Numbered from the stretch's first letter, positions 13,387 to 56,174 are shown. The stretch: 64,000 bases of DNA from an uncultured Gammaproteobacteria bacterium (GCA_964565405.1 CAZMEW010000001.1:59637-123636), one strand, 5' to 3'. The notes: generated from the sequence alone by a model not told the origin. Program-made: numbers and translations.

Positions 13387-13400
13387 TTTGATACACTGGT

Positions 13401-19287: not shown

Positions 19288-19343
19288 TCAAGAAGATAAA
19301 AAACCGAGTATCTCACTCGGTTTTTTGTTTATAATGATTTGTA

Positions 19344-19907: not shown

Positions 19908-20042
19908 ACGAACATAATAATTATACCCGCGAATAAAAATCGTGATTAGTATACCTAAAGAGGATTTAAAATACTAGGATATTGATACATCGCAAAAATT
20001 GCTATAATAGACTATACTGGATATTGTAATTAACCTACATAT

Positions 20043-21269: not shown

Positions 21270-21314
21270 AAATTGATACAAAAAAACTGGCTCACTACCA
21301 GTTTTTTTATTTTT

Positions 21315-40534: not shown

Positions 40535-40565
40535 GCTCGGGGACAGGGTGCTATGCTATTCGAAC
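40535..40565. repeat. tRNA-Gln 3'-end fragment (candidate att core, direct repeat of 56103..56123)
   Basis: GCTCGGGGACAGGG (14/14) and ATTCGAAC (8/8) are identical to the acceptor-3'/T-arm of tRNA-Gln at 56103..56123. The two blocks are split by a 9-nt insertion, in the same orientation. Confidence 0.45.
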
Positions 40566-40570
40566 ATCTC

Positions 40571-40628
40571 ACGAAAACCTTCGGGTTTTCGTGTACTTTC
40601 CTCAGAATGTGAAACCTCACGGTTTCAC
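40571..40628. other. two adjacent perfect hairpins (ACGAAAACC-ttcg-GGTTTTCGT and GTGAAACC-tcac-GGTTTCAC)
   Basis: Read directly from the sequence. The stems share GAAAACC/GGTTTTC-type arms; one has a UUCG tetraloop. Confidence 0.5.
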
Positions 40629-40663
40629 CCTTCCCTCGTTCGAATCTCCTTTAATCTCCAATA

Positions 40664-40701
40664 TAATAATAACTCCCGGCTTAAGCCGGGAGTTATTATT
40701 A
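40664..40701. terminator. 17-bp perfect hairpin TAATAATAACTCCCGGC-ttaa-GCCGGGAGTTATTATTA (bidirectional terminator-like)
   Basis: Perfect inverted repeat flanked by A/T runs, downstream of the minus-strand gene 40847..41728. Confidence 0.5.
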
Positions 40702-40846
40702 GCTCCCGACCCCGGTCTAGAACACTGGAAATAACCAATCAACCGTGAGATTTTTAGGAGTCCAGTATACCATACTTCTGGACGGGGGTCGATCAGAGGG
40801 AAAAAGAGACAAATGAGACACTATAGAGGGGTCTTTTAGGACTGTC

Positions 40847-41728
40847 TCATTTTGACTGTTTTTCGAGGATCTCCTCCCTCTTTTTCTCAAGCTGTCCTGC
40901 TTCTAAAAGCATCTGAACGCCATTCGGAGTTTCATGCTTTTTAAGGATCGCTTCATACTCGTATTTGTCTTGCCCCTTATATCCCACTGGAATGCGTCGA
41001 ATATAGTTAGCTTCACTCCCGTTGATATAATGGAACATGTATTGATGGAATACTTGTCCAGAATCATCGGTAAAGTTCTCGAGCTTGGATGCAAAGCCAT
41101 TATCTATGTGTTGATTCATCGCAAGACAGAGAAACTCTTCTTTGCCTTTGCCATCTGCATGATCCCAGACTTCAGAGATAAGCTGTGCCCGCATCCAGAT
41201 AAAATCTCGATGCCCGTTGTTATTCATGAGTAATTCCCATGCTTGCTTACGCGCAGTTTCATTGTCACTAATAATCATCTGAATGAGCATGTTGTATATC
41301 TCATTGTATCCCATGCCTGCATATTTCCTGATCGCTGCTACACCTTTTTCATTATCCTCTCTAATTTTCTCCGCAAGAGTCGTGATTTCTTTGAATACTA
41401 CTCTATGTCTTTCTTTTTTCTCTTCAGCGGTTGCTTTGCGATGAAATACACCCCCAGGAGAATCGACGACGTATAAGAAGGCATCCTTTTTATATTCTTT
41501 AATTGAATGCGCTTCTACTTGATTAAAGGTAACAATAAAAAATGGGTTTACCTTGTCTAGGATATCTCGGTAGTTTTCGTACTCGGTATAATGAACTTCA
41601 CCAATATCGTATTCAGCGATGAGCTTAGTAAAGTACTCGTTTTCTTTGATCTGACGAGGCTTTGCTTGGGAAGTGTCTTTGAGAGGTGTGAATCCGATAA
41701 TAACCGTATGGATGGTAGGCATAGGCAT
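40847..41728 (-). CDS. hypothetical protein
   Basis: 293 aa, soluble, no motif I recognise. Confidence 0.4.
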   Translation of the reverse strand: MPMPTIHTVIIGFTPLKDTSQAKPRQIKENEYFTKLIAEYDIGEVHYTEYENYRDILDKVNPFFIVTFNQVEAHSIKEYKKDAFLYVVDSPGGVFHRKATAEEKKERHRVVFKEITTLAEKIREDNEKGVAAIRKYAGMGYNEIYNMLIQMIISDNETARKQAWELLMNNNGHRDFIWMRAQLISEVWDHADGKGKEEFLCLAMNQHIDNGFASKLENFTDDSGQVFHQYMFHYINGSEANYIRRIPVGYKGQDKYEYEAILKKHETPNGVQMLLEAGQLEKKREEILEKQSK

Positions 41729-41745
41729 ATATTAAGGATATATAC

Positions 41746-42228
41746 CTAGCTTATACCTGAAGGATTATTTTTTGCAATACATCTTTTTAAAAAAAGATAC
41801 ACGCTACTTACGACAAAAATGGAAATTATAATACTCCCCAAGATATCTAAAATATGATGTACTCCAGTCAAAATCCTTCCCACTCCTACCAATACTCCTA
41901 AAATAAGTAATAAGATGCCAACTTTTTTATTAACATAATAAACGCTTAATGCAAGAGTAAATACTAACAATGCATGTTCAGAGGGAAATCCATTGTTTGG
42001 GATATGAGAAACAAGTGGTAAAAAATTCCCTTCTACAAAAGGACGTGGGTTGATAATAAATATACTCAAAACCCTGCCAACCATAAAGGCAACTAACAAA
42101 GAAAGTATGGTTAAAAGTATGAATTGTAATCTTACCTTTTTTGGCGAAAACAAAATAAAAAGAAATGTTATTCCTATAACAATAAGATAAAGATATTTAG
42201 CTAGAAAAATAATTATACTTTCTGTCAT
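41746..42228 (-). CDS. PAP2 family membrane phosphatase
   Basis: PAP2 motifs present: INPRPF (KX6RP), GFPSEHA (PSGH) and GRILTGVHHILD (SRX5HX3D). Confidence 0.55.
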   Translation of the reverse strand: MTESIIIFLAKYLYLIVIGITFLFILFSPKKVRLQFILLTILSLLVAFMVGRVLSIFIINPRPFVEGNFLPLVSHIPNNGFPSEHALLVFTLALSVYYVNKKVGILLLILGVLVGVGRILTGVHHILDILGSIIISIFVVSSVYLFLKRCIAKNNPSGIS

Positions 42229-42233
42229 ACATA

Positions 42234-42449
42234 CTATGCCCCAAGCTTTACCTCATACCCTAATTTTTGAATAACTCCAAAAATAATTTCAATTGAAATA
42301 TTACTCTCATCAAACGTCACGTTCGTCTCATTTTTTGCATAACTTGTTTTAGATTCTTTCACACCCATATCTTCAAGCTCACCATCAATATTCATGGCAC
42401 AACTGGTACAATGCATGCCGTTAATTTTTAGTTTTATTGTTTTTTCCAT
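42234..42449 (-). CDS. copZ: copper chaperone CopZ-like HMA protein
   Basis: 71 aa with a GMHCTSCAMNI metal-binding motif. Confidence 0.8.
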   Translation of the reverse strand: MEKTIKLKINGMHCTSCAMNIDGELEDMGVKESKTSYAKNETNVTFDESNISIEIIFGVIQKLGYEVKLGA

Positions 42450-42450
42450 A

Positions 42451-43443
42451 CTATAAGATATTGATTACTCCCGTGTACATTCCCATACTACATGAGAACA
42501 CAAGTTTTCCTGGTTTGCTTGGGGCAGTAAATTCGACTACACCTTCTTCTCCTGGCGCCACGACTTTCTGTATACCAAGCTTAGGAATCGTAAATGACTG
42601 AGCACAAGTATACCCATTGATATTTTTTAAGTTTATTTTTACTTTTTCACCAGCTTTTACCGATAGACTTCTAGGGCTATATCCCGATGGGCCAATTTGA
42701 ATGGTAAGATCAGAATTTGAAGTAACTGTAGTAGAAGTTACAGGCTCTGAAGACAAATTTAGACTTGTTCCACTAAGTACAATCGCTCCTTTAAGATTGT
42801 AGAGTGCTAAGAGAATAATAGCGACAGCAGCTACTTTGAAGAACTTTTTTTGATATGCGTCACCAAGTTTGGTCGCAAAGTACCCAAGGATAAAAAACAG
42901 TGGTGAAGTTCCAAGTATAAAAGCAAAAAGTACTGCTGCACCGTACCATGGGCTTCCTGAGGCAATCGAGAGAGCCATCATACCCTGTGTAATGCCACAG
43001 GGAATAAATACCGTAAACGCACCAAGTAGGGCTGGCGCAAACATATCTTTACTCTTTGACTGATTTCGTACCAGACGCGTAAGGAATTTTGGTGGTTGAA
43101 TCACAAAATAACGAAAAAAAGGATGGACATTGAGAAGATTGAGAGCAGTACCGATCATAAAAATCGCAACTACAAACTGCATAATTGCTTGAGCCTTCAC
43201 TGAAAGCTGAAAAATTGATCCGAACCACCCAAGAAGGAAACCAAGTATTGTATAGGCGACAAGTTTTGCGGCAATAAAGAAAAGGATCGGCTTTGCATTT
43301 CCTTTATTAGCTCCTTCTTGCAGTCGTTCTTGTTCACGCTCAGCAATCGTGGTTGCCAGAAGTCCTCCTTGTACTGCGAGACACGTGAGTCCGCCGGTAA
43401 TCAGTCCTGTGAAAAAAATTACTAACAAATTTGATTGTCCCAT
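42451..43443 (-). CDS. DsbD_2/UreH-like permease fused to C-terminal cupredoxin-like domain
   Basis: TM core with FIPCGITQG (compare FLPCGFTQS in 15800..16807). C-terminal YTCAQSF...FSCSMGMYTGV is homologous to the separate ORF 16815..17210. Confidence 0.55.
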   Translation of the reverse strand: MGQSNLLVIFFTGLITGGLTCLAVQGGLLATTIAEREQERLQEGANKGNAKPILFFIAAKLVAYTILGFLLGWFGSIFQLSVKAQAIMQFVVAIFMIGTALNLLNVHPFFRYFVIQPPKFLTRLVRNQSKSKDMFAPALLGAFTVFIPCGITQGMMALSIASGSPWYGAAVLFAFILGTSPLFFILGYFATKLGDAYQKKFFKVAAVAIILLALYNLKGAIVLSGTSLNLSSEPVTSTTVTSNSDLTIQIGPSGYSPRSLSVKAGEKVKINLKNINGYTCAQSFTIPKLGIQKVVAPGEEGVVEFTAPSKPGKLVFSCSMGMYTGVINIL

Positions 43444-43453
43444 AGTGAAAATA

Positions 43454-45748
43454 TTATAATTTCATGCTTTTAATTCGGAGTGAATTCGTGACGACGGTCA
43501 CGCTTTCAAATGCCATAATCGCCCCAGCGATTGCAGGACTGAGTGTCCACCCAAAGAATGGGTAGAGAATGCCCGCTGCAACCGGAATGCCGAATGAGTT
43601 ATATGCAAATGACCAGGTCAGGTTCTGCCAAATCGTCTTATTAGTTCTTTGTGCCAGATGAATTGCTTCAGCGACTTTTACAATATCGCCCTTCAGAAGC
43701 ACAATGTCAGAGCTTTCGATTGCAATATCTGATCCATCACTCATAGAAATTGCAACATCAGCTTGGGCTAGTGCCGGAGCATCATTTACCCCGTCCCCAA
43801 TCATTGCTACTTTATGACCTTTCTTTTGCAACTCTTTAATGATATTTAGTTTATCTTCGGGCTGTACCCCGGCATAGACTTCATCAATGCCGAGACCTTT
43901 GGCAACGGCCTCACCAGTTGTTTTATTATCTCCTGTTGCCATGACAACTTTTAGTCCGAGTTTTTTGAGTTTGGTAATTTCTGCTTGAGCTTCTATTTTT
44001 ATTTGGTCATGAATTTTAATCAGTGAAAGCACTTCTCGGTCGTCTGAAAGATACAGCTCGCGACCTTTTTCAAAACGTGTACCATCAAAATCTTTTTGTA
44101 CGCTTGCTTCTGACTGTTTAATAACTTCAGCAATAAATGAACGAGAACCTAGATAATACTTTTTACCCTGATACTCTGCAGTCACTCCTTTACCCGCAAC
44201 CTCTACTACATGAGTAATCGGCAGCGCAGGTACCTTATTTTCTTTCATCCACGATGCGACACTTTCAGAAACCGGATGTTTTGAAGATTTGGTGATTGCG
44301 TAAATAAGTGATTGTTTGAACGAGATGTCCTTGAGATCGCACGTGTGATTTTTGTCTTTACAATACACCCCCTCAATTCCAAGTGTATTATGTGTAAGAG
44401 TTCCAGTTTTATCAAAGACAAGTGCCGTAACTTTGGCGAGTTTTTCCAAGCTTTCTGCGTTTTTGATAAGTATCCCTCGTTCAGCTCCTCGGCCAACACC
44501 GGTAATGATTGCGGTAGGAGTAGCAAGCCCGAGCGAGCACGGACATGCGATCACCAAGACAGCCATGGTAGTAGAAATCGCAAATGCTAGAGCGTGGGTT
44601 AATCCAAGAGTTGCGGGTCCGAATATCATCCATGATGCGAAGGTAATAACTGCAAGCCCAAGTACTACATAGACAAATATGCCAGATATTTTATCTGCAA
44701 TACGCTCAATCGGTGCTTTGGAGTTTTGAGCATTTTCAACAATAGAAATAATATGAGCCAAGGCAGTATCTTTCGGGTCTTTCGTAACTTTGATATGAAG
44801 TATTCCCTGAAAATTCTGTGTTCCTGCGAATACCGTATCTTTTGGTCCTTTGTCTACGGGAATTGATTCACCAGTTAAAGTTGCTTCATCAATCGAACTC
44901 GACCCCTCGATAATACTCCCATCAAGTGGAATGCGCTCATGTGGTTTTACAATAATAATATCTCCAATGGTTACTTTTTCAATTGAGACACTCATTTCTT
45001 TTCCCTTACGGATGACGGTTGCCGTTTTACTCGTAAGTCCTGCGAGTTTTTGTAGAGCATCATTTGTCTTTTTCTTTGCCCGATCTTCGAGATGTTGTCC
45101 AAGAGCAATCAGACCAATGACCACGATAACAACATCATAAAAATTAGAGGTAACATCAATATATGGCGCAAGAACGTTTTCAAACGCAGTTACGATAAAC
45201 GAATAGATAAAAGCGACGATAGTTGAAACACCGACCAGGGTATCCATGTTTGCAGTGCCGGTTTTTAGAAATATCCATACTGCTTTGATGTACTTTCTTC
45301 CAATACCAAATAACACAAACGAAGCGAAAATAGGCATCAGATGATGAAATACCTCATAAATGTTTTCTGACATCATGGGAATAATGTTGTTTTGTGAAAG
45401 TACTTCCCACAACATCATCACAAAAGAAAAGAATATCATCGGAATGACGAATTTCATTTCAAACCCCACATTTCCTTTTTCTGAAGCCGAACCTTCATGA
45501 TGATGCTCAGTACTAGTGGACATAGATTTTTCACCTACGTCTTCAAGGGTGTAGCCAAATGGAGAAATCACTCCCGAGAGTTTTACAGTATCCATAGGAG
45601 CTTCAGTAAAATTAACGATTGCTTTTTCTTGATTGAGTTTTACTGAAACAGAGGTGATCCCAGGAACTTTACGGAGTTTTCTTTCTATCAGCGACACACA
45701 ACTTGCGCAAGTCATGCCATTTACTTTATACACGTGCTCTACTGCCAT
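43454..45748 (-). CDS. copA: copper-translocating P1B-type ATPase
   Basis: HMA (GMTCASCVSLIE), CPCSLGLATP, DKTGTLT and [11 protein letters not shown] motifs. Confidence 0.9.
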   Translation of the reverse strand: MAVEHVYKVNGMTCASCVSLIERKLRKVPGITSVSVKLNQEKAIVNFTEAPMDTVKLSGVISPFGYTLEDVGEKSMSTSTEHHHEGSASEKGNVGFEMKFVIPMIFFSFVMMLWEVLSQNNIIPMMSENIYEVFHHLMPIFASFVLFGIGRKYIKAVWIFLKTGTANMDTLVGVSTIVAFIYSFIVTAFENVLAPYIDVTSNFYDVVIVVIGLIALGQHLEDRAKKKTNDALQKLAGLTSKTATVIRKGKEMSVSIEKVTIGDIIIVKPHERIPLDGSIIEGSSSIDEATLTGESIPVDKGPKDTVFAGTQNFQGILHIKVTKDPKDTALAHIISIVENAQNSKAPIERIADKISGIFVYVVLGLAVITFASWMIFGPATLGLTHALAFAISTTMAVLVIACPCSLGLATPTAIITGVGRGAERGILIKNAESLEKLAKVTALVFDKTGTLTHNTLGIEGVYCKDKNHTCDLKDISFKQSLIYAITKSSKHPVSESVASWMKENKVPALPITHVVEVAGKGVTAEYQGKKYYLGSRSFIAEVIKQSEASVQKDFDGTRFEKGRELYLSDDREVLSLIKIHDQIKIEAQAEITKLKKLGLKVVMATGDNKTTGEAVAKGLGIDEVYAGVQPEDKLNIIKELQKKGHKVAMIGDGVNDAPALAQADVAISMSDGSDIAIESSDIVLLKGDIVKVAEAIHLAQRTNKTIWQNLTWSFAYNSFGIPVAAGILYPFFGWTLSPAIAGAIMAFESVTVVTNSLRIKSMKL

Positions 45749-45749
45749 A

Positions 45750-46031
45750 TTACTTTCGTTTTAATTTATACACTTTTAAAACTTCTTCTTGTGCTTTACC
45801 AACCTGCCCTGAAGACATTTGATGATGCACACAATGCCCTAAATGATTTTCAAGGAGCGCATCTTCAACACCTGAAAGACCCTGCTTTACGGCAGATGTT
45901 TGAGTGATTACGTCTATGCAGTAGGTATCATTCTCAATCAACTTTTGTAGTCCACGAACTTGCCCTTCTATGAGTTTGAGACGACGAATTATTTTTGCTT
46001 TACTTTTTTCATTCATGTATTTCATATACAT
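45750..46031 (-). CDS. csoR: CsoR/RcnR family metal-sensing repressor
   Basis: 93 aa, about 85% identical to the first CsoR. Same YCIDV...H.HCVHHQM ligand context. Confidence 0.8.
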   Translation of the reverse strand: MYMKYMNEKSKAKIIRRLKLIEGQVRGLQKLIENDTYCIDVITQTSAVKQGLSGVEDALLENHLGHCVHHQMSSGQVGKAQEEVLKVYKLKRK

Positions 46032-46036
46032 CGTAG

Positions 46037-46055
46037 TATACCCCTAGGGGGTATA
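46037..46055. promoter_or_regulatory. putative CsoR operator palindrome upstream of csoR-II
   Basis: TATACCCC-TA-GGGGGTATA, 6 nt upstream of the csoR-II start codon. Same architecture as 13082..13099. Confidence 0.5.
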
Positions 46056-46361
46056 CTTATCAAAGCCAGGGGTGTGGACAACCCATATTTAACCAAAATC
46101 TAAAAAGTGCTATTATGAATTTACCAGTCCTTTTAACGGTTATTATATTGCAATCCCCCCTCGGGCTGACTCTAAAGGGTCGCTAAATGGGCGTACACTA
46201 CTAAGATTGTCACAATGGACAATTTCATAGAACAATCGCAAGACGAGGAAATATACAAGCTTAGCTTGTTATTTCTTTGATCTGCGATTTTAAAAAATCA
46301 ACTATCAAAAATACCAGGCTTTACTTAAGAGCCTGGTATTTTATTTCTAACTCACCCTGCT

Positions 46362-47633
46362 ATGCCCAAATTAGTTTGGCACACAGAAAAGCGTACGGTT
46401 AATGACCTTATACCTTACGAACAGAATCCTCGGACCTTGAGTGACACACAACTCAAAGGTTTGAAACGCAGTCTCACAAAGTTCAATCTCGTAGAAATTC
46501 CCGCAATTGATCTGGATGGCAAGATTCTTGCTGGTCATCAAAGAATAAAAGTATTGCAACTCTTGGGACGTGGAGATGAAGAAATCGAAGTACGTGTCCC
46601 TAGTCGAAAACTCTCTGAAGAAGAATTTCGAGATTATCTCTTAACTTCCAATCGCTCAGGTGGTTCCTGGGATTGGGAGAAGCTTGCGTCTGACTTTGAT
46701 TTACAGGAAATCCTCATTGCTGGATTTGATGCGGTCGACCTTGCAACTATCTTTGATAGTAACCTAACCATTCACGATGATGAATTCAATGAAGAGAAAG
46801 AATTGAAGAAGGCACAGAATACAAAGATTAAACCCGGAGACATGTTTGCATTAGGCAGACATCGGCTGATTTGTGGCAGTTCACTTGATCTCAGTGTAGT
46901 CAAAAGACTTATAGGTAATGCCCACGTTGATCTTATTAACACCGACACCCCATATAACATAAACCTAAGCTATGACAAAGGTGTTGGGAATCGGAGCAGC
47001 TATGGAGGATCAACAAAAGATAATAAGTCAGATGAGGAGTACCGGGTATTCGTTAAAACCATTATGGAGAATGCATTAGCTGTAGCGAAACCAGATTGTC
47101 ATGCATTCTTCTGGTGTGATGAGCGGTATGTCTGGTTATTCCAAGAACTGTACAAAGAACTCGGACTCGATTCAAAACGCTTATGTATCTGGATCAAGGA
47201 TAATGCGTCTCCCACACCGAACGTCGCATTTAACAAGGTAACTGAGTTTGCAGTATACGGAACCCGAGGAAGACCGTTTCTCGCGAAAGGTGTAACTAGC
47301 TACAATGAGATTCAGAACAAAGAAATGGGAACAGGTAATCAACTGACTGAAGACATATTGGATCAACTGAACATTTGGCTCATTAAACGACTGCCTGGTA
47401 ATCAATATTCACATCCCACTCAGAAGCCCCCTACTCTGCATGAAAAGGCTCTACGTCGTTGTAGTAAGCCAGGAGACATTGTACTCGATCTGACTGCTGG
47501 ATCAGGAAGTATTCTTTCAGCATGTGAACAGCTTAAACGAACCGCGTATCTCTGTGAGCTTGAACCCGTATTTTGTCAGCTCATAATAAACAGATTCAAA
47601 GCATTGACTAATCTTAATGTACAAAAGATATGA
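46362..47633 (+). CDS. ParB-like nuclease domain fused to beta-class N6A/N4C DNA methyltransferase
   Basis: N-terminal ParB/Srx-like region (LVEIPAIDLDGKILAGHQRIKV), then motif IV DTPYN followed by motif I LDLTAGSGS. The IV-before-I order indicates the beta class. Confidence 0.7.
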   Translation: MPKLVWHTEKRTVNDLIPYEQNPRTLSDTQLKGLKRSLTKFNLVEIPAIDLDGKILAGHQRIKVLQLLGRGDEEIEVRVPSRKLSEEEFRDYLLTSNRSGGSWDWEKLASDFDLQEILIAGFDAVDLATIFDSNLTIHDDEFNEEKELKKAQNTKIKPGDMFALGRHRLICGSSLDLSVVKRLIGNAHVDLINTDTPYNINLSYDKGVGNRSSYGGSTKDNKSDEEYRVFVKTIMENALAVAKPDCHAFFWCDERYVWLFQELYKELGLDSKRLCIWIKDNASPTPNVAFNKVTEFAVYGTRGRPFLAKGVTSYNEIQNKEMGTGNQLTEDILDQLNIWLIKRLPGNQYSHPTQKPPTLHEKALRRCSKPGDIVLDLTAGSGSILSACEQLKRTAYLCELEPVFCQLIINRFKALTNLNVQKI

Positions 47634-48061
47634 AACCATCTTCATCAATCGCTCGACGCCAAGCACGAGAAAAGCAAGCACTCCTTGAGCAACTTACTCG
47701 GACGCCAACGATCGAGGTTGCGTGCCAAAAAGTTGGTATTGCACGCGCAACCTTCTATCGCTGGAGAAAAGCAAGCAAACAGTTTGCTCAGGATGTAGAG
47801 GAAGCACAACAACGTGGTCGAGAGTTTATAACCGATGTTGCTGAATCCAATCTGATTGCACTCATCGGTGAAAAGAAGTTTGAAGCAATCAGACTATGGC
47901 TTACCAACCACTCACCTCGATTTGCGAATAAACTTGAATTATCTGGCACGGTGAATCATACGGATGTACCACTCACCAAAGAACAGAAAGCAATTGTGAG
48001 ACAAGCGCTTAAGTTATCTAGCCTTAACACCTATGAGGCAAAACCTCCAAAAACTCGTTGA
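47630..48061 (+). CDS. phage terminase small subunit-like HTH protein
   Basis: HTH segment IEVACQKVGIARATFYRWRK. Its end overlaps the start of the large-subunit gene, as in phage packaging modules. Confidence 0.5.
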   Translation: MKPSSSIARRQAREKQALLEQLTRTPTIEVACQKVGIARATFYRWRKASKQFAQDVEEAQQRGREFITDVAESNLIALIGEKKFEAIRLWLTNHSPRFANKLELSGTVNHTDVPLTKEQKAIVRQALKLSSLNTYEAKPPKTR

Positions 48062-49469
48062 GAAAGTACTGAAAGACCCAGATGTTCGACGTGCGGTTGT
48101 TACCAAAAATTTTGAATGGTTTTTCTCAATTTACTTTCATGCGTATATCAAATACGAAACTGCTCCGTTCCAGCGGGAGATCTTTCGTATTGCAGAAGAC
48201 CTGCGTACCCGACTCTCGGTTATTGTTGCATTCAGAGGCTCGGCAAAATCTACGATTATTACGACTGCCTATCCACTCTGGGCGATTCTTGGGGTGCAGA
48301 AAAAGCACTTTGTGGTTATCTTGAGCCAAACGCAAACCCAGGCACGACAACATCTAGCAAACATTAAATATGAACTGGAACAAAATGAGTTACTACGGAA
48401 AGATTTAGGACCATTCAAAGAAGAACCTCCTGATGAATGGGGTCGATCAGCGATTGTCATTCCTAAATACCGGGCAAAAATTATTGCAGCGTCAGTCGAA
48501 CAAAGTATTCGTGGTATCCGATACTTGGAGTATCGCCCTGACCTTATTATTGCTGACGATATTGAAGACTTAGACTCCGTACGAACGCTTGAGAGTAGAA
48601 ATAAAACATACGACTGGTTCAAGGGTGATGTGCTTCCTTCAGGAGACAAGAATCTCAAGACCATTATTGTAGGAAATCTATTGCATGAGGATTCAGTTTT
48701 AAAAAGACTGCAACAAGAGATTGAATCAGGCGTGCTTACCGGTATATACCGAGAATATCCCCTCGTAACCGATGAAGATACAATTTTATGGCCAGGTAAA
48801 TTTCCAACTATGCAAGACGTAGAGATCGAGCGAAAAAAATTCGGTAATGATCTTAGTTGGCATCGAGAATTCTTACTAAAGATACTCCCGAGCGATGGGC
48901 AAGTAGTGTATCATGAATGGATTCAGTATTATGATACTCTTCCTACGAACATGTATGCCGTATGGACAAAAACCGGCATTGATTTAGCAATTTCAAAACG
49001 AGATACTGCTGACTTTACCGCGATGGTTACGGGTACTCTGTATCGACGAGGTAACGAATTATTTCTCTACATCCATCCGTATCCCATTAATGAACGGATG
49101 GATTTCCCAGAAACCCTTGAGAAAGCAAAATTAGTAGCGGGTACCGGTAAAAGAAACGAACTCTTGATTGAAGAAGTGGCATACCAAACTTCATTGCATC
49201 AGCAATTAAGCAAAGAATGGTACTTTGCTCGAGGTGTTCAGACCCGTGGCTTAGATAAACGAACACGATTAGCCTACATCTCAAACTTCATCAAGAACGG
49301 CAATATCCTCTTCCCTGAGAAAGGATGCGAGACACTTATTGCCCAAATTGTCGGGTTTGGAGTGGAAAAACACGACGATCTTATGGATGCGTTTGTGATC
49401 CTCGTGAATGAGGCTATGAATCAACGGAGAGTGTTTCCGGGCTTTGTGGAGAAACCTGATCGAATTTAA
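48033..49469 (+). CDS. phage terminase large subunit
   Basis: Walker A-like RGSAKSTI, Walker B LIIADDIEDLD and a C-terminal RNaseH-like nuclease region with acidic residues (DDLMDAFV). Confidence 0.6.
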   Translation: MRQNLQKLVEKVLKDPDVRRAVVTKNFEWFFSIYFHAYIKYETAPFQREIFRIAEDLRTRLSVIVAFRGSAKSTIITTAYPLWAILGVQKKHFVVILSQTQTQARQHLANIKYELEQNELLRKDLGPFKEEPPDEWGRSAIVIPKYRAKIIAASVEQSIRGIRYLEYRPDLIIADDIEDLDSVRTLESRNKTYDWFKGDVLPSGDKNLKTIIVGNLLHEDSVLKRLQQEIESGVLTGIYREYPLVTDEDTILWPGKFPTMQDVEIERKKFGNDLSWHREFLLKILPSDGQVVYHEWIQYYDTLPTNMYAVWTKTGIDLAISKRDTADFTAMVTGTLYRRGNELFLYIHPYPINERMDFPETLEKAKLVAGTGKRNELLIEEVAYQTSLHQQLSKEWYFARGVQTRGLDKRTRLAYISNFIKNGNILFPEKGCETLIAQIVGFGVEKHDDLMDAFVILVNEAMNQRRVFPGFVEKPDRI

Positions 49470-49602
49470 GTTATCAACAACTTACCTGGACTTACTAAAG
49501 AGCATGCGTCATCAGTAAACCTGGAACAAAATATGGATTGACCGACCATGCTCTTTATAGTACACTTTTTGTGCTGCCTATATTAACTGAATTTTAACCA
49601 AA

Positions 49603-50391
49603 ATGGACGACTGTCTAACTGGCCAATTGTGCCTAGAGATGGACAGTCGTACCTCCACAATTGAGTCCTTTTGGGATTCAGTTAATGTGGGCAGCAGGTT
49701 CGGCTGTCCTTTTTTGTTTTTATACACACCCAAAGGTCGAAAATATACTCATTTTAATATAACTAATTCTATGGATGAGAAACGAACGTTTTTTAAGACT
49801 CCTACTGGCAAGTCAATAATCGTTATTATTATTCTAGCCATTGGATTCTTTGCGGGAATGGAATATAAGGCGTATCAGATACGATCAGTCATTAATAAGG
49901 CGGAAAAAGAAATCGGTGCTTTATTTACTGGAGGAACCACTACTGCTTCTGATGAAGAAACTAAAAAAGCTCCTGAGGAGGAAAAATTTATTGATAAAGC
50001 TGTAGGAGATGAAGTTACGTTGCGTACAGTAAAAATTCAAGTTAACAAATTCAAAGAACAGGAAGATATCTCAAATAGTTACGGTTCAATGAAGGTAGCT
50101 GCGAACGGAGCAAAGTTTGTGGTGATAACTATGACGGTAACTAATTTAACCAACTCGAGCATATCATTTGGTTCTGAACCATTCCCGCTCTTTGATAGTC
50201 AGGGACGAAAGTTCACGACGTATAGCGAAACTATTGGAAATATCGATAACTATCTTGATGTGGCAGATTTTGCACCAGGTATTCCAAAACAAGGTGTATA
50301 TGTGTACGAAGTACCTCTAGATTCAACAGGAATGTACATTGGAGCATCTAAAGCTGGGACAGACGAGGCGTACCGTATAAACTTAAGATAA
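49603..50391 (+). CDS. membrane-anchored DUF4352-like protein (probable start near 49770, MDEKRTFFK)
   Basis: TM anchor followed by a beta-rich domain (KFVVITMTVTNLTNSSISF...) resembling DUF4352 lipoproteins. Confidence 0.35.
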   Translation: MDDCLTGQLCLEMDSRTSTIESFWDSVNVGSRFGCPFLFLYTPKGRKYTHFNITNSMDEKRTFFKTPTGKSIIVIIILAIGFFAGMEYKAYQIRSVINKAEKEIGALFTGGTTTASDEETKKAPEEEKFIDKAVGDEVTLRTVKIQVNKFKEQEDISNSYGSMKVAANGAKFVVITMTVTNLTNSSISFGSEPFPLFDSQGRKFTTYSETIGNIDNYLDVADFAPGIPKQGVYVYEVPLDSTGMYIGASKAGTDEAYRINLR

Positions 50392-50423
50392 TACTACTTA
50401 AGAGCGACATAAAAAGCCAAGAT

Positions 50424-51593
50424 TTAATCCTGGCTTTTTTCTTTATCCTTCGCAAACCCTGCCCACCTATCTATTGGATATTCAATAACTGGCACGCCTG
50501 GAATAATGAAAGATCTCCATTCGCCAAATGGATAGCGACCCGTGAACGTCTGGGCAACTGATTTTGTACGTTCATACGCATCTCTGTGACACTTCTTATA
50601 CTTCTTCTCACTACCACACGGACAAGGCTTATTAACCTCTACCTTTTTGTATCTTTCAAAAAGTGCATAATGCAACAAATCATCAGTCTTAGTCTCTGTA
50701 TCAGTGAGAAATACTTCCTTTTTTACTACAGCACCCATTGAAAATCCATCCGGATTTCCTCCCGCAAATATTTGCGATGGGTATTGTTGATTAAACGCAC
50801 CTACAACTTCTTGCAATCGTTCTGTCTTTTGAGCTACGCACTTAACATAAGAATTATTGATTATAGCTCGATTTATGAGATGTAAAAGTTTTTCATCTAC
50901 TTCATGAACAGTATTTGGTTTTACTCCAAATCCATTCTTTGAATTCCATAAAGCAATATAGTGACTAGAAGAAATTGGTATGAGTACTAACGTTTCTTGA
51001 AGACCAATATTCCTGTTACTTACATCATGGAAGCGGCTTTTAACCTGAAGAGCGACAGTTGATACGCACTGATCACTTAATAAAAAATCACCATTACTTT
51101 TTAAGACCGTAAAATTATATCCACGCTTCATTGTTTCTGCAAGCGCATCAATGTATCTCGAATCAAATATTTTCTGCGTGAGGAGAGGTATCTTGTCTTC
51201 CTTTTTGAACATAGAAGATTCAGCGAGGAGTGCGCCACTACGATAGTACGAGAGAATGTAAAATTTATATAGACTTTCAGCTCTTTTCTTAAGATCTGTA
51301 ATATTCATCGTCCCTTTATCAACCGCCTCAGCATTTTCTCTTAGTCTTTTTACCGTAGGCGCAGTTACATCTTCAATACGGCTTAATAAATCTTCTATAC
51401 TGTTTTCCTGAATATCTGGATGTTCATATGTATGGTTTTCGGTCATGGCATTAGCCGGACTTGTAGGGTAAATCGCTTCCTTTGGTATAAACAGCTCGAT
51501 CACTTGGTCGTCAGCGTTCAAAAAGCCATCTAGGATAAATTGTGGAATATAATGTTGATTTTTCTTCCTCATATGCTTCAAAACATAACACAA
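50424..51593 (-). CDS. DUF4238-like protein with C-terminal SEC-C zinc-binding motif
   Basis: N-terminal HYIPQF motif, typical of the DUF4238 start. C-terminal KPCPCGSEKKYKKCH is a SEC-C metal-binding motif. Confidence 0.45.
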   Translation of the reverse strand: MCYVLKHMRKKNQHYIPQFILDGFLNADDQVIELFIPKEAIYPTSPANAMTENHTYEHPDIQENSIEDLLSRIEDVTAPTVKRLRENAEAVDKGTMNITDLKKRAESLYKFYILSYYRSGALLAESSMFKKEDKIPLLTQKIFDSRYIDALAETMKRGYNFTVLKSNGDFLLSDQCVSTVALQVKSRFHDVSNRNIGLQETLVLIPISSSHYIALWNSKNGFGVKPNTVHEVDEKLLHLINRAIINNSYVKCVAQKTERLQEVVGAFNQQYPSQIFAGGNPDGFSMGAVVKKEVFLTDTETKTDDLLHYALFERYKKVEVNKPCPCGSEKKYKKCHRDAYERTKSVAQTFTGRYPFGEWRSFIIPGVPVIEYPIDRWAGFAKDKEKSQD

Positions 51594-51690
51594 AAACCAA
51601 TCAATTCAAACACCTAAGTTACCAACAGCTCGGGTCTAGACGGGCTTGGGTCGGGTGCGTCATTAATGTAGTAGTAATAACTAAGGTTAT

Positions 51691-52986
51691 ATGGAAACTA
51701 CAGCGCAACCTATTGTACGGTATTGTCTCTATGCTCGTAAGAGTACGGAACAAGATGAATACCAAGCACTCTCTATTGATTCTCAAATTAAGGAAATGAC
51801 TGACATGGCACATCATGAAGGTCTCTACATTTCTGAAGTACGAAAAGAAGCTCATTCAGCCAAAGAATCCGGACAACGTCCGGTTTTTTTGCAATTACTC
51901 CAAGATATTAAGCAAGGATTATTCAATGGAATTATTGCCTGGGATCCATCTCGCATTAGTAGAAACGCTGGAGATTTAGGAAGTGTTGTCGATTTGATGG
52001 ATCAAAAACTCATTGTCGACATACGAACACATGGGCAGCGATTTACCAATTCACCGAATGAAAAGTTCTTACTTATGATTCTGTGTAGCCAAGCAAAACT
52101 TGAAAATGATCATAAAGGAGAAAATGTAAAACGAGGACTACGAGCAAAATGCGAACAAGGATGGAGACCTGGGCTTGCACCCATTGGTTACTACCACGAT
52201 AAATATGCAGACAAAGGAAGTAAGCGAGTGATGACTGACCCTGAACGAGCTCCCGTCATTCGTAAAATGTTTGAGAAAGTTGCGTATGAAAACTGGAGTG
52301 GCAGAACTATTTCAAAGTGGCTGAACGAACAAATGGACTTTACTACGCGCAAAGGCAAGCGAATGACCTTGAGCATGATTTACCGAGCGCTTAAAGAACC
52401 GTTCTATTACGGGGTGTTTGAGTTTCCGGTCGGGAGTGGAAAGTTCTATTCTGGTAATCATGAGCCTATTGTTAAGAAAGATCTCTTCGATTTAGCCCAA
52501 GCTAATCTACTCGCACCTGCACGGAGGCATCCCGGAAGTGTTGAGTATGAGTTTACGAATCTCCTGTATTGCGGAGCGTGTGGATCTGGTATCTGTGCTG
52601 AAGAGAAGTTCAAACACCAACAGAATGGGAATACTCATCGATACGTGTATTATCACTGCACCAGAGGCAAAAATCGGGACTGTAAGGAGGGCGCGATACG
52701 AGAAGAGGAGTTGTTGAGGCAGATCCTGCAATTGATGGATAATATGGAGTTTGATGAGGCTATTTTACATGAACGTATTAGGGATGAGGTTTTGAAACTA
52801 AAAAAGTTCGCTCTTGGGGTGTTTGGGAAAGAAAGCGAACTGTTTGAGAATCTCACGTCAGGAGATATTCGGAACTACGCGAAGTATATTTTGAGAGAAG
52901 GAACGAAGGATCAGAAACGAGAGTTATTGAAATGTTTGAAGAGTAAGTTGGAATTGAAAGAAAAAATAATAAATTTGTCGAGTTAA
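51691..52986 (+). CDS. large serine recombinase (resolvase/integrase family)
   Basis: N-terminal catalytic domain (YARKSTEQ with the nucleophile Ser), recombinase domain, and a C-terminal Zn ribbon CGACGSG...YYHC. Confidence 0.8.
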   Translation: METTAQPIVRYCLYARKSTEQDEYQALSIDSQIKEMTDMAHHEGLYISEVRKEAHSAKESGQRPVFLQLLQDIKQGLFNGIIAWDPSRISRNAGDLGSVVDLMDQKLIVDIRTHGQRFTNSPNEKFLLMILCSQAKLENDHKGENVKRGLRAKCEQGWRPGLAPIGYYHDKYADKGSKRVMTDPERAPVIRKMFEKVAYENWSGRTISKWLNEQMDFTTRKGKRMTLSMIYRALKEPFYYGVFEFPVGSGKFYSGNHEPIVKKDLFDLAQANLLAPARRHPGSVEYEFTNLLYCGACGSGICAEEKFKHQQNGNTHRYVYYHCTRGKNRDCKEGAIREEELLRQILQLMDNMEFDEAILHERIRDEVLKLKKFALGVFGKESELFENLTSGDIRNYAKYILREGTKDQKRELLKCLKSKLELKEKIINLSS

Positions 52987-53421
52987 TCATTCCTTATTTA
53001 TAAGATATGCAACTTTACTTGACAACAAGATTGTTAGTAATACAAACGGGGAAATTAGCAGACCCCACAGTGAACCTTGGAGTCCTATATAATCAAACCA
53101 TCCAGAGATTTTTCCATCTAGTTTTGAAGCAGAAACAATTAAAATGGGTAGAATAAAAAGGCTTAATCCAATGAGAAGTATTCTATTTATCCATTTATAT
53201 GAACAATTTGTTAATTTATTTTTTGTCACTGAAAAGAAAATATAGTCCAATAAATACACTCCTATTAAAAATGACCATGCGAGTGTTGTTTGTGCTACTT
53301 GTGTACCTGAGTTTTCAATCCTTTGAAATATTGTTGCCAAGAAAGTTGGAAATAAAATTGATATCGTTAAGGCTAACTGGAATCTTGAATCTATCTCATG
53401 AATTATATCTTTTACACTCAT
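52987..53421 (-). CDS. hypothetical 4-TM membrane protein (candidate effector)
   Basis: 144 aa with four hydrophobic helices. Terminal gene of a co-oriented helicase cluster. Confidence 0.4.
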   Translation of the reverse strand: MSVKDIIHEIDSRFQLALTISILFPTFLATIFQRIENSGTQVAQTTLAWSFLIGVYLLDYIFFSVTKNKLTNCSYKWINRILLIGLSLFILPILIVSASKLDGKISGWFDYIGLQGSLWGLLISPFVLLTILLSSKVAYLINKE

Positions 53422-53451
53422 AGTTTCTTATTTTTACTTTAAATTAACTAA

Positions 53452-54162
53452 CTATTCTAAATTTGTTTTTTCGCGGTTTAATTCAATATATTTAATCATT
53501 TCTTCAATGTACTTATCAAGCAAATCTTTTACCTGATGAATGTCCTTACTTTCCTCCTGTACATCTTTTTCCGTTGGGTAAAGTCTTACAGTGCTGATGG
53601 TTGCGGTTTTGCTTCTTAGACTAAAAGAAGTACCTCTAATAGTTCTTGGGCTTTTTTCATGGCTAATTTGATAATCACGATAGTCTGAAATATCTTGCTT
53701 TGCTTTTGCAATCAAATCTTTAAGGTTAGGCGGCAAAGGTGATAAGGATTTATCTTTGATGTACTTTTCTAAGTTTTTACTTAAATCATCGTGAGAGTCT
53801 AGGGGCAAACCTCTCGATGGTCCAAAATAAAACTCTATCGATCTAGCTATCTTATCTAGAAGTATTTTTGCAAATAAATAAAAAGATTCAATTTCTAAAT
53901 GAAGAATCTCGGTAAACTCCTCGCTCTCCTTCAAGAGGTTCAGTTCTTTTTCATCAAGTGTGTGGTTTCCTGGTTGGAAGATTGTCTGTAACTTATCTCT
54001 GTTATTTGAGTAATCTCTACAGGCTTTTTCGTATCTAGTCATTATAATAACTAAAAACTTGTAATACCTAACTATCTGGGCAAAAGAATTAGCAAATAAA
54101 TTATTATGTCTTGTAGAAAATTTCTCTCGTTCTCTACCTATAAAACTACTTAGGATCTCCAT
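53452..54162 (-). CDS. hypothetical protein (helical, Glu/Lys-rich)
   Basis: 236 aa, no recognisable motif. Middle gene of the cluster. Confidence 0.4.
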   Translation of the reverse strand: MEILSSFIGREREKFSTRHNNLFANSFAQIVRYYKFLVIIMTRYEKACRDYSNNRDKLQTIFQPGNHTLDEKELNLLKESEEFTEILHLEIESFYLFAKILLDKIARSIEFYFGPSRGLPLDSHDDLSKNLEKYIKDKSLSPLPPNLKDLIAKAKQDISDYRDYQISHEKSPRTIRGTSFSLRSKTATISTVRLYPTEKDVQEESKDIHQVKDLLDKYIEEMIKYIELNREKTNLE

Positions 54163-54181
54163 ATGTCTAATTAATTTTATC

Positions 54182-55957
54182 TTAGCTTATATCTCCAACC
54201 ACACACAACTCCTTCATGGCTCGCGTTAAAGCCACATACAACAAATCACGGTTTATTTTCTCTTTTTCTTTTCTCAATTCTACTGGATAGTTTGCAGTAC
54301 TCCACGTATTTTCAGTATTTCCTACCAAAAATACCGTATCAAATTCCACTCCTTGCGCTTCGCGTACTGGCATTACCTTTACCCATCCACATTTTTTGAG
54401 TGCCTGATAGGGTTCCAATGAAGACTCGTCTTTTGCAAGTACACCGATCAATCGGTCAGTATTTTTCTCTACAAACGAATTAATAAATTCTTCTGTCTCC
54501 TTTGTATCACTCATTACTTCAACCGTCTTACCTTCTTCAAGAGATGGTGGAATTTCTACTATATATCCCAACGATTGAATAAACTTTAATATTTCTTTGG
54601 TATTTCGATAGACTTTTTCAAGTGTAATATGCCGAGCGGTAGGAATTTGCTCGTTGAAATCATTCCAGGACTGTAGAGTACCTAGTTTCGTTTGCTGACG
54701 AAGATCGCCGACATATACAGCAGCGTTCGTATCTTCACTTACACAACCTTTGATCAACTGGAGCTGTTCGGGCAGATAATTTTGGAATTCATCAATAATA
54801 CAGAGATTATAAACTGCCTGAAACTTTCCTTTTTTACGCTTTACTTCGAAAGAGTTTCGCTGTTGTACCAAAAATTCACGTGTTTCATCCAATACTTTAT
54901 TCTGCTTTTTGTAGTGTGTAAGCATGATCGTGAGATCAACCTCGTCATATACTTTCTGATTCAAACGGTCGAGTACCAGATCTACATGAGATGTTACATG
55001 TTTCTTATACACTTTGTATAGCCAATCAGCTGGTTTATCATTAGGAAAATCAGGTACAGACCGAAGAATACGTAATTTTTGGTGCCTGATTACATCTTCA
55101 GTTATATCGTCAAATCTTTTATCCTCCACCCCTTTAGTATCTATTCCAAGGATGTCGGTAGCCCAATCAGTAAATGTAACAATTGCCACATTCTCGATTC
55201 CCAGCTCGGGCAAGAGTGAACTAAAATATGATTTCGTACCATTGTCCTGTACAAACACTTTAATTCGATGTCCTGGAAAATGTTCAGATATTTCAGGAAC
55301 TTGCATCAGATATGCAACCCGATGCAGAGCAAGCGTTGTCTTTCCTGATCCAGCTGGACCTGAAATAACCATCGGACCTTTCCATGATGAGCGTATGACT
55401 CGATCCTGTGCTTCTTCCATCTGTGACACAATTTCAGGAAGTATAAATCCTGTTTTACGGTTTGAAAAATTTTCTTGATAGACTAAGGTACGAGGTGCGT
55501 TACTGGTTTCTGTTGCGAAAAACATGACCTTACCATCTTTTATGAGATATTCATCTTTTCGGGTAAGTTCTACTTTTCTTTTTTCTCTATTTGGCATGAT
55601 ATACTCAGCCGTCCCAGGATGTGAGAATCTGAGAGTTGCAACTGGAGAAATCCATGAAACAATTGATTCTTCAGAATACGCAAATTTTCCTATGTATACC
55701 TGTGAAAATTTATGTTCGGAATTGAAATTGCAACGTGAAAAATATGGCGACGGATGCAGTGCCGATAATTCGTGCTGACGTTTTTTTGTGTACTGCAAAA
55801 GCGTGTGAAGTGTGAGCTTCTCAGCACCTTCAGCTTTTACATACTGCTGCCCCATTTTCTTATATTGTTCTTCTAGCTTTTCTCCAGTTTTCTGAAGGGA
55901 CGCTTGAATGACTGCAATATGTTCGCGTGCTTCTTCTAATAATTGTGTTGAAGACAT
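54182..55957 (-). CDS. SF1 UvrD/HelD-like helicase with uncharacterised N-terminal domain
   Basis: Walker A GPAGSGKTT, Walker B IIDEFQN, and a UvrD_C-like tail (GVEFDTVFLVG...YVALTRAMKELCVV). The N-terminal region of about 190 aa is unassigned. Confidence 0.7.
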   Translation of the reverse strand: MSSTQLLEEAREHIAVIQASLQKTGEKLEEQYKKMGQQYVKAEGAEKLTLHTLLQYTKKRQHELSALHPSPYFSRCNFNSEHKFSQVYIGKFAYSEESIVSWISPVATLRFSHPGTAEYIMPNREKRKVELTRKDEYLIKDGKVMFFATETSNAPRTLVYQENFSNRKTGFILPEIVSQMEEAQDRVIRSSWKGPMVISGPAGSGKTTLALHRVAYLMQVPEISEHFPGHRIKVFVQDNGTKSYFSSLLPELGIENVAIVTFTDWATDILGIDTKGVEDKRFDDITEDVIRHQKLRILRSVPDFPNDKPADWLYKVYKKHVTSHVDLVLDRLNQKVYDEVDLTIMLTHYKKQNKVLDETREFLVQQRNSFEVKRKKGKFQAVYNLCIIDEFQNYLPEQLQLIKGCVSEDTNAAVYVGDLRQQTKLGTLQSWNDFNEQIPTARHITLEKVYRNTKEILKFIQSLGYIVEIPPSLEEGKTVEVMSDTKETEEFINSFVEKNTDRLIGVLAKDESSLEPYQALKKCGWVKVMPVREAQGVEFDTVFLVGNTENTWSTANYPVELRKEKEKINRDLLYVALTRAMKELCVVGDIS

Positions 55958-56103
55958 AAAACACTCTACTTAATAATAGAGGGATGATGTTGAGTGGCAA
56001 CACCTAGAATGCTCCCTTGGCACTGCCAAGGGGCTGGTGTTTTGAAGAAGCTACAAACTGATGTTTTCGGATAGAGTCGGGTCACTTTCACAAGACTCAT
56101 GTG

Positions 56104-56174
56104 CTCGGGGACAGGGATTCGAACCCCGATAGTTGGGACCAAAACCCAAAGTCCTACCATTAGACGATCCCCGA
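56104..56174 (-). tRNA. tRNA-Gln (anticodon UUG), no encoded CCA
   Basis: Acceptor TCGGGGA/TCCCCGA (U1:A72, G73 as in bacterial tRNA-Gln). D-arm GTCT-AATGGTA-GGAC. Anticodon arm TTGGG-TTTTGGT-CCCAA. T-arm CGGGG-TTCGAAT-CCCTG. Confidence 0.8.

Follow-up and report, generated by a model that had tools for sequence, protein, structure and literature searches.

The stretch of DNA analysed here is a 64,000-nucleotide window deposited under an uncultured Gammaproteobacteria bacterium (GCA_964565405.1, CAZMEW010000001.1:59637–123636). It contains a tRNA-Gln(UUG) gene (56103–56174, minus strand; identified by ARAGORN and by the Rfam tRNA family at 58.5 bits), behind which lie genes for a large serine recombinase, phage-type terminases, copper resistance and a helicase. 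On the comparisons described below, these genes make up an island of 15,401 bp at 40702–56102, between the last base of tRNA-Gln (..CCCCGAGC) and the displaced native terminator of that gene. We consider this interval to be, probably, one modular, integrative and satellite-like island belonging to a family found across the candidate phyla radiation (CPR), with integration by serine recombinase as the proposed route.

Judged from its sequence, the host is a Candidatus Magasanikbacteria bacterium, a member of the CPR. Relatives of the ftsX gene beside tRNA-Gln at 81–89% amino acid identity were found only in Candidatus Magasanikbacteria metagenome-assembled genomes, and the ftsX–tRNA-Gln synteny is kept in approximately 25 Magasanikbacteria loci. 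In close relatives, ftsE–ftsX–tRNA-Gln is followed by 0.9–8 kb of unrelated variable DNA and then by homologues of the window genes at 38237–37551 and 36625–35414, with most of the 38.3–56.1 kb region missing. Since this DNA is unrelated and has conserved genes on either side, the region behind tRNA-Gln is a variable hotspot. The relative loci and contigs compared with the window are labelled with L-numbers (L001, L005, L054 and so on).

The presumed integrase gene (51691–52986, plus strand; Pfam, and phrog_95 at 1e-68) encodes a large serine recombinase of 431 amino acids, with the three parts that define this class: a Resolvase domain (PF00239) with the catalytic serine in the motif YARKS18T, a Recombinase domain (PF07508) and a zinc ribbon (Zn_ribbon_recom, PF13408). 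Structural relatives in the PDB are YokA of the SPbeta prophage and the TP901-1 integrase. The recombinase has more than 8000 homologues at E ≤ 1e-20; the best 120 share 61–87% identity, and every one of these 120 that carries an organism name is from the CPR. Of the marks of a site-specific integrative island, the locus has an encoded recombinase and relatives with an empty site.

A preliminary description of this DNA had proposed an integrated element of about 15.6 kb, bounded by direct repeats of the tRNA-Gln 3′ end. The 14-mer in question, GCTCGGGGACAGGG, has exactly two copies in the window (40535–40548 and 56103–56116); as both are on the plus strand, they form a direct repeat. A window-wide search allowing up to two mismatches turned up no other copy, where dinucleotide shuffles give an expectation of 0.12, so that an exact repeat in direct orientation, beyond chance, is upheld. 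In the tRNA, a second segment, ATTCGAAC, directly adjoins GCTCGGGGACAGGG (56117–56124); at the left it lies at 40558–40565, with a 9-nt insertion (TGCTATGCT) separating it from the left GCTCGGGGACAGGG copy, giving a total of 22 nt copied from the T-loop and acceptor 3′ strand of the tRNA. The left copy is the tail of a module of approximately 125 nt (40535–40660, minus strand; 85.5 bits in a covariance model), which we call module B. The empty-site comparison with relatives suggested in the preliminary description proved informative in L005, where tRNA-Gln, terminator, B and copy follow in direct succession with nothing intervening. L007, which also lacks the island, has terminator–B–copy set apart from the tRNA by 0.7 kb of inserted DNA with a gene for a hydrophobic protein of 154 aa. 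Because B occurs in island-free relatives and at other tRNAs, the left repeat is part of a dispersed, pre-existing module and not an insertion product, and the reading of the 14-nt repeat as an attachment (att) scar has to be given up. Membership of the repeat in a dispersed family had been named in advance as grounds for rejecting that reading, and such a family, module B at many tRNAs, is what we found. Integration itself created no direct repeat of a tRNA 3′ segment; the true junctions share GAGC only.

The real left junction lies at 40701/40702, 167 bp to the right of the left repeat. It reads ..GTTCTAGACCGGGGTCGGGAGC up to the junction and TAATAATAAC-hairpin beyond it, and the GAGC at 40705–40702 is all that the island and the tRNA 3′ end share there. 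Outside the junction, the hairpin 'T' (TAATAATAACTCCCGGCTTAAGCCGGGAGTTATTATTA, 40664–40701, minus strand) is assigned as the displaced native tRNA-Gln terminator, as the hairpin that follows ..GGGAGC in L054, a different Magasanikbacteria genome, is orthologous to the L002 terminator that comes immediately after tRNA-Gln. Inside the junction, the island left end (40702–40846, minus strand, with the junction sequence ..GACCGGGGTCGGGAGC) is 80% identical to L054 positions 638–805, which stop at the same point with the hairpin next. Deletion of 40702–56102 in silico leaves a 257-nt sequence that is colinear with L005 (214 of 256 positions identical) in the order tRNA, terminator, B, copy. The island limits were set from these two observations, the common end point in L054 and the restored L005 layout. 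The alignments show the terminator, and B behind it, pushed 15.4 kb from the tRNA by the island. An outward-facing promoter-like site (TCGACC-17-TGgTATACT, 40792–40764, minus strand; promoter scan) lies near the left end and is conserved in L054 at approximately 700–740; in an excised circle, this site would read over the junction into the opposite island end and the helicase operon.

That opposite end, which we call G (ACATGAGTCTTGTGAAAGTGACCCGACTCTATCCGAAAAC, 56063–56102, minus strand), abuts GAGC at the tRNA and is the putative recombinase-bound P′ arm. It is conserved in relatives, with an identity of 100% in L054, 97% in L056 and 89% in L005. Two further loci, L057 and L060, encode recombinases 66–70% identical to that of the window, 3–4 kb from a tRNA-Asn gene and in the same geometry. 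The tRNA-Asn 3′ end is ..GGAGC here, and the arm next to it, AGATAAAYTTGGTGAAAGYGACC, is G-like, being homologous to G (ACATGAGTCTTGTGAAAGTGACC) at the same offset. The shared GAGC and the conserved P′ arm are seen in five loci and at two tRNAs. Overall, the comparisons show precise GAGC junctions, a conserved arm at two tRNAs and empty sites in relatives. The preliminary proposal of an integrated element beside tRNA-Gln accordingly holds for an acquired island running from the tRNA-Gln 3′ end to approximately 40.7 kb, and fails for the 14-nt repeats as its bounds.

We also weighed the earlier model as a whole, in which a 15.6 kb element has the 14-nt copies as attL and attR, with B and the hairpin as the element's distal arm. 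The exact, direct repeat beyond chance agrees with it, as does L005, in which B, copy and G are contiguous, as expected of an attP composed of B, core and G. The L005 element is, however, a deletion remnant: G, the gene for a 144-aa protein and recombinase residues 226–410 are present, fused by deletion to a chromosomal gene, and it is B's copy, rather than the tRNA, that this remnant immediately follows. At 14 or more loci, terminator–B–copy stands directly behind cargo-free tRNAs of many isotypes. L054 shares the island and its left end but is without B. Wherever B is not directly behind the tRNA (window, L007, L041, L046, L047 and L011), a tRNA-end-like junction sequence precedes the terminator hairpin, and in the first five of these the hairpin and junction sequence always lie between B and cargo. 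Against these observations the earlier model is very improbable.

Between the recombinase and the copper genes lies a phage-derived module on the plus strand (46362–50391; PHROGs), which is also found in L054, L056, L055 and L062. It comprises a ParB–DNA methyltransferase fusion (46362–47633; PHROGs and Pfam), the small and large terminase subunits TerS (47630–48061; PHROGs) and TerL (48033–49469; phrog_38, 7e-78), and a DUF4352/phrog_806 protein (49603–50391; PHROGs). Between the window and L056, the ratios of nonsynonymous to synonymous substitution are 0.05 for the methyltransferase, 0.14 for TerS, 0.09 for TerL and 0.11 for the DUF4352 gene, with no internal stops; the packaging genes are intact, and purifying selection acts on them. 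Pfam and PHROGs detected no capsid, portal, tail or lysis genes in the island, nor remnants of such genes, so that the locus lacks the virion or lysis genes by which a prophage would be recognised. It has one mark of a phage satellite, namely an integrase with packaging-hijack genes (recombinase, TerS and TerL) and no virion set. The term 'degraded prophage', used in the preliminary description, is disfavoured by the intact, selected packaging genes and by 9.75 kb that are identical in a second genome.

These data bear on a further alternative, that the DNA is an immobile prophage remnant in a variable region, with the differences between genomes arising from DNA uptake and homologous recombination and not from site-specific integration. 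It would fit the absence of detected capsid, portal, tail and lysis genes, the position of one end of the identical block inside a gene, and the failure to find attP when G was searched in viral contigs. It sits poorly with intact reading frames and strong purifying selection on the packaging genes, with a G that is conserved at precise tRNA-end junctions of two different tRNAs, and with a recombinase family that repeatedly adjoins tRNA 3′ ends. We judge it improbable.

The genome L054 was found by exact look-up of the recombinase. Across window positions 46378–56131 it shows zero differences over 9,754 bp, in contrast with 78% identity in the ftsX/ftsE flank (blastn, with a per-base list), and all 34 differences in the alignment fall in 46312–46377 or in the tRNA anticodon stem. 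To the left of the identical block, L054 has other genes instead of the copper operon, and shares the left end and a gene for a 293-aa protein (76% identical). Diverged homology (approximately 65% identity) continues past the methyltransferase start to approximately 46230. L056, whose recombinase is 87% identical, has the order CopA–CsoR–methyltransferase–TerS–TerL–DUF4352–recombinase, followed by other cargo and by G; the contig then ends within tRNA-Gln, of which the 3′ part is present. In the Taylorbacteria contigs L062 and L063, the methyltransferase, TerS and TerL (50–53% identity), the 293-aa protein (55%) and CsoR–CopA–DsbD_2 are linked. The element family thus appears to span several CPR lineages, with the island genes in Magasanikbacteria and Taylorbacteria and the recombinase in other named CPR groups as well.

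The copper cargo (41746–46031, minus strand; Pfam) encodes CsoR, CopA, a DsbD_2–cupredoxin protein, CopZ and a PAP2 phosphatase, with the csoR–copA–DsbD_2/cupredoxin–copZ genes spanning 42234–46031. It is tied to the same methyltransferase–TerS–TerL module in L056 (88% nucleotide identity) and in L062/L063, and replaced in L054. One may suppose that the locus is a composite, in which a recent phage-like element of approximately 9.8 kb (approximately 46.3–56.1 kb) entered at the tRNA in front of an older, independent copper/PAP2 island (40.7–46.3 kb). The identity block does stop at 46378, L054 does have other genes in place of the copper operon, and the left-end region and 293-aa gene have only 76–80% identity to L054, a level like that of the chromosome. 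Tandem arrays are known at such sites (L007 and L011), and accretion, in which newer elements displace older ones from the tRNA, is documented for tycheposons (10.1101/2020.12.28.424599). Nevertheless, there is no junction or terminator scar at 46.0–46.4 kb, the diverged L054 homology reaching approximately 46230 points to a homologous-recombination breakpoint, and CsoR–CopA adjoins the same module in L056 and is linked to it in Taylorbacteria. We therefore regard a composite as unlikely, although less so than an immobile remnant.

Several points weigh against a single, recombinase-integrated island. The recombinase gene is 3.1 kb from the tRNA end, not at it. The junction matches the tRNA 3′ end at 13 of 23 positions, which is chance level: in a scan of the window with the tRNA 3′ 23-mer, 73 positions score exactly 13/23 and approximately 94 score 13 or more. 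Since so many positions score alike, the match is unusable as statistical evidence, and the boundary argument rests on position and comparison. Large serine recombinases are recognised by attP and attB sites of approximately 40–50 bp, which are imperfectly dyad-symmetric and have the same dinucleotide at their centre. No dyad symmetry was seen in the proposed attP by eye, no formal inverted-repeat search having been run, and the only inverted repeat noticed by eye near the junction (GTCGGG...CCCGAC) has its centre 9 nt off the junction. A search for G in viral contigs gave 0 matches and thus no excised circle or attP junction; the crossover and the role of the recombinase are inferred. Helper phage, replication module and recombination directionality factor were likewise not identified. 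The compositional check proposed in the preliminary description came out divided: tetranucleotide distance sets the island apart (0.150 from the rest of the window, with same-size host pieces all ≤0.071), but GC content does not (0.392 versus approximately 0.40). The boundary at 46378, being inside the methyltransferase gene and not at an att site, reflects homologous recombination, and because L054 is without the copper operon the island could be composite. Finally, both L054 and the window are metagenome assemblies, in which a shared assembly-graph node could hide small differences.

With these points in mind, we propose the following mechanism for the single island. The integration target would be the tRNA-Gln 3′ end (..CCCTGTCCCCGAGC, 56116–56103, minus strand), which is predicted to form the left half of attB. 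The recombinase would join an attP with the halves ..GACCGGGGTCGGGAGC and ACATGAGTCTTGTGAAAGTGACC.. to an attB formed by the tRNA T-arm and acceptor (..CCCCGAGC) on one side and the TAATAA-terminator on the other. The predicted attP junction reads ..GGGAGC followed by ACATGAGTCTTG.., that is, ...GTGTTCTAGACCGGGGTCGGGAGC joined to ACATGAGTCTTGTGAAAGTGACC..., and the predicted empty attB reads ..CCCCGAGC followed by TAATAATAACTCC.., that is, ...AATCCCTGTCCCCGAGC joined to TAATAATAACTCCCGGCTTAAG.... The tRNA would stay intact because the crossover falls within the shared GAGC. Module B duplicates the left half-site of attB and may be usable as a second landing site, as a related element lies directly after B's copy in L005; this insertion would be explained if B's copy and terminator imitate attB. 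Spread is most likely by satellite-like packaging into helper-phage particles, given that selected TerS and TerL are kept and capsid, portal and tail genes are not. After entry, homologous recombination with resident relatives would produce the mosaic pattern, such as the identity limit inside the methyltransferase gene.

A conserved backbone can be delineated across the family, comprising G, the recombinase, DUF4352–TerL–TerS–ParB-methyltransferase, the 293-aa gene and the left end with its outward promoter. The element has two cargo slots, occupied here by the helicase cluster and the copper-resistance operon. The tRNA-side slot (52987–55957) holds genes on the minus strand for a UvrD-like helicase (54182–55957; Pfam), a 236-aa protein (53452–54162) and the 144-aa protein (52987–53421); in L056 and L005 other genes are found there, save for the 144-aa gene kept in L005. 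PADLOC gave only generic helicase and methyltransferase matches when the cargo was searched for known defence systems, and no primase or replication initiator was found in the island by Pfam, the UvrD-like helicase being the only such gene. A DUF4238/SEC-C protein (50424–51593, minus strand; Pfam) is accessory and absent from the L056 element. The conserved 293-aa protein near the left end (40847–41728, minus strand) has 85 homologues, all named ones from the CPR, and no Pfam family. Its AlphaFold model (pLDDT 92) has no Foldseek match in the PDB at E ≤ 0.001 and shows no capsid or portal fold, and we rejected it as a hidden capsid or portal protein. Exact look-up of this protein gave no record, and it has no relatives among viral contigs. 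Pfam and PHROGs agree with the gene content listed in the preliminary description (recombinase, ParB-methyltransferase, terminases, copper genes, PAP2, DUF4238/SEC-C protein and helicase).

A related arrangement was seen in L055 (IMGVR_UViG_3300032024_000414; 531–13265), which encodes a ParB-methyltransferase, a second methyltransferase, TerS and TerL, 42–54% identical to those of the island, with reverse transcriptase and MoxR-like ATPase/vWA genes after the terminases. No capsid genes were found in the 14.4 kb retrieved, and L055 may be another terminase-only element with defence-like cargo. Serine recombinases of other clades (29–38% identity) are encoded at L001 11015–12655, near the 3′ end of tRNA-Gln, and at L036 11746–12684, near that of tRNA-Gly; both genes read toward the tRNA and lie no more than 0.6 kb from its 3′ end. 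It may be a general feature of these bacteria that serine recombinases target tRNA ends.

Module B was examined with a covariance model built from 15 copies and searched over the collected loci, where it gave 22 matches above 45 bits, corresponding to approximately 20 distinct copies. Read along the minus strand from 40660 to 40535, B begins with a 5′ segment (GGAGATTCGAAC), which the junction GAGGGAAG links to hairpin 1 (GGTGAAACC-GTGA-GGTTTCAC). The junction CTGAGGAAAG (the GAGGAAAG junction) leads on to hairpin 2 (CACGAAAACC-CGAA-GGTTTTCGTG), and the 3′ portion is made up of GTTCGAAT, a mini-hairpin of 9 nt and, last, CCCTGTCCCCGAGC, which copies the tRNA-Gln 3′ end (40548–40535). The 5′ segment is complementary to the 3′ tail, forming a closing helix in most predicted folds, around a conserved four-way-junction core of approximately 95 nt that has covarying hairpins, a uniform size and no gene remnants inside. 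Six pairs of hairpin 2 are changed on both sides, in a compensatory manner; hairpin 1 is invariant apart from two G–U pairs, the sole basis of the strand assignment; and hairpin 3 alternates between Watson–Crick stems and a stem with tandem G–A pairs. The gap between terminator and B leaves no space for a promoter.

The layout of B is constant, with the tRNA, a terminator hairpin (which precedes every B module), B and usually a second terminator. A metagenome scan with hairpin 1 returned 17 further loci with B-type matches, some redundant, and three others that are chance hairpins. At least 11 tRNA species other than Gln are followed by B. The adjoining tRNAs comprise Gln, Thr, Lys, Arg (two isoacceptors), Phe, Gly (two), Ser, Asp and Cys, often in tRNA clusters, and the tail copies 13–23 nt of the adjoining tRNA, from approximately T-loop position 58 to the discriminator, or to CCA where this is encoded. 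In L004, for example, B lies behind tRNA-Thr and its tail is the tRNA-Thr 3′ end (CCCCGATGTCGGCTCA). The copy in L034 is 41 nt long, terminator included; at L034 5900–6131 the same stretch of at least 41 nt (tRNA-Arg 3′ end and terminator) occurs on both B flanks, and the contig ends there. This double flank looks like a recent duplication made on the arrival of B. In distant Magasanikbacteria (L027 10985–11220 and L025 10960–11195), a different scaffold of approximately 115 nt lies behind tRNA-Gln with a tail that still copies the tRNA 3′ end, and tRNA and copy evolve in concert, since both carry the same lineage-specific substitution (CCCTGTCTCCGAGC).

No Rfam family was found for B: when the window was scanned at gathering scores, and its B and a canonical B by E-value, the only matches were terminator-like and due to chance. 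Hammerhead, RNase P, transfer-messenger RNA and signal recognition particle RNA were rejected on by-eye comparison, and the B hairpin had 0 matches in viral contigs. Neither B nor the island family was found described in the literature surveyed, which covered tRNA-adjacent structured RNAs, CPR islands and serine integrases that target tRNAs. The copied tRNA segment is about as long as the attB half-site of approximately 20 bp expected from published large serine recombinases, a value taken from other families. We tentatively suggest that, in CPR bacteria, B may represent either a structured RNA of a new class or a mobile module that is non-autonomous. On this suggestion, which we hold to be possible and less probable than the island itself, the closing helix and tail would reproduce the adjoining tRNA from approximately position 58/59 to the discriminator or CCA, with the four-way junction conserved, and B might serve as a duplicate or decoy landing pad or spread between tRNA loci by copying tRNA 3′ ends. 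B could act as a decoy or as a second attB, could be expressed as an RNA resembling a tRNA minihelix, or could be a non-autonomous element of small size.

Small cassettes, single or in tandem, were also observed between tRNAs and B modules (L011 14230–16370, L007 11086–11745, L041 and L046). Each encodes one hydrophobic protein and ends in AAAAGTT(C/T)G...(last tRNA bases) followed by a hairpin; L011 holds two B modules and two cassettes. They look like a family of miniature integrated cassettes.

At the flanks of the island, a gene for a stand-alone GIY-YIG protein of 86 aa (56160–56420, minus strand) shares 15 nt with the tRNA-Gln 5′ end. L006 and L029 have homologues at this same place, and L057 has one close to tRNA-Asn. 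Directly downstream of B and on the same strand is a gene for a 579-aa protein (38687–40426, minus strand) with a weak peptidoglycan-binding match; as related loci have no homologue, it adds to the variable genes that separate B from the conserved ones. The DUF6629 gene (37551–38237, minus strand) is split by an in-frame TAG at 37871–37869 into open reading frames of 122 and 105 amino acids and forms a single 235-aa frame in L007; the split appears to be a nonsense mutation, a pseudogene or a sequence error. Elsewhere in the window, a second, divergent copper operon was found at 13105–17210 (CsoR 81% and CopA 44% identical in amino acids to the island copies). It starts 140 bp after a tRNA-Asn gene (12890–12964) that also ends in ..CCGAGC, with RimK-like and YibE/F genes beyond it, and 12890–21300 has a tetranucleotide deviation from the host of 0.148. 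No recombinase was found within 12890–21300, which may be an older island at a second tRNA.

The island can be compared with known prophages and islands that use large serine recombinases (SPbeta SprA/YokA, TP901-1, A118 and SCCmec Ccr), with which it shares the three-domain enzyme and catalytic serine, a very short identity between element and target (here GAGC) and a target gene left functional. To our knowledge, enzymes of these types mostly target protein-coding genes. The island, in contrast, targets the extreme 3′ end of a tRNA, a trait apparently shared by a very large CPR recombinase family, and its recombinase gene is internal. Tycheposons of Prochlorococcus, which are cargo-carrying or satellite-like elements at tRNA genes of streamlined genomes, form the closest ecological parallel; newer elements push older ones outward, partial tRNAs remain, and 27 of 937 use a large serine recombinase (10.1101/2020.12.28.424599). 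The island is without their hallmark tyrosine recombinase and replication genes, has both TerS and TerL, and its 'partial tRNA' is part of a structured module. Among phage satellites, phage-inducible chromosomal islands (PICIs) carry TerS or capsid-remodelling genes and capsid-forming PICIs carry a capsid gene set. Like them, the island combines an integrase and packaging genes with accessory cargo and recent horizontal spread, in the absence of a full virion set; unlike them, it has TerS and TerL without capsid or portal genes, and no known replication or primase module or helper phage.

Module B resembles the direct repeats of tRNA 3′ fragments at islands of tyrosine integrases, and integrase-less cis-mobilisable elements (CIMEs), in having a tRNA 3′-end copy downstream of an intact tRNA and in the use of that copy in L005. 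It differs in its four-way-junction core of approximately 95 nt, the 5′ segment complementary to the copy, its uniform size and the lack of gene remnants. The omega RNA of TnpB and the tRNA-matching homing CRISPR RNA of type V-K CRISPR-associated transposons consist of a scaffold and a 3′ guide. B may be likened to these, as a lead only, in its scaffold of approximately 100 nt, 14–23 nt identical to the tRNA 3′ end and a terminator, but its surroundings have no TnpB, Cas12 or transposase gene, its 5′ segment sequesters part of the 'guide', and Rfam gives no match.

The island is distinctive in its use of the last tRNA bases as a target with approximately 4 nt of identity, its TerS and TerL without a capsid gene, its recurrent copper cargo and its CPR host. 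The mobile elements of CPR bacteria are poorly known, and this locus offers a delimited, recently transferred example in which terminase genes and copper resistance form a recurrent link across CPR classes. The proposed att half-sites are directly testable, and small integrases of 431 amino acids are of practical interest. Module B, a structured element that has not been described before and carries its own tRNA 3′-end copy, can be studied from approximately 20 distinct copies. The final bases of tRNA genes appear to be the target of a very large family of CPR serine integrases, and if the suggested reading of B is true, the island family would take part in a system of integration at tRNA ends that is peculiar to these reduced genomes.

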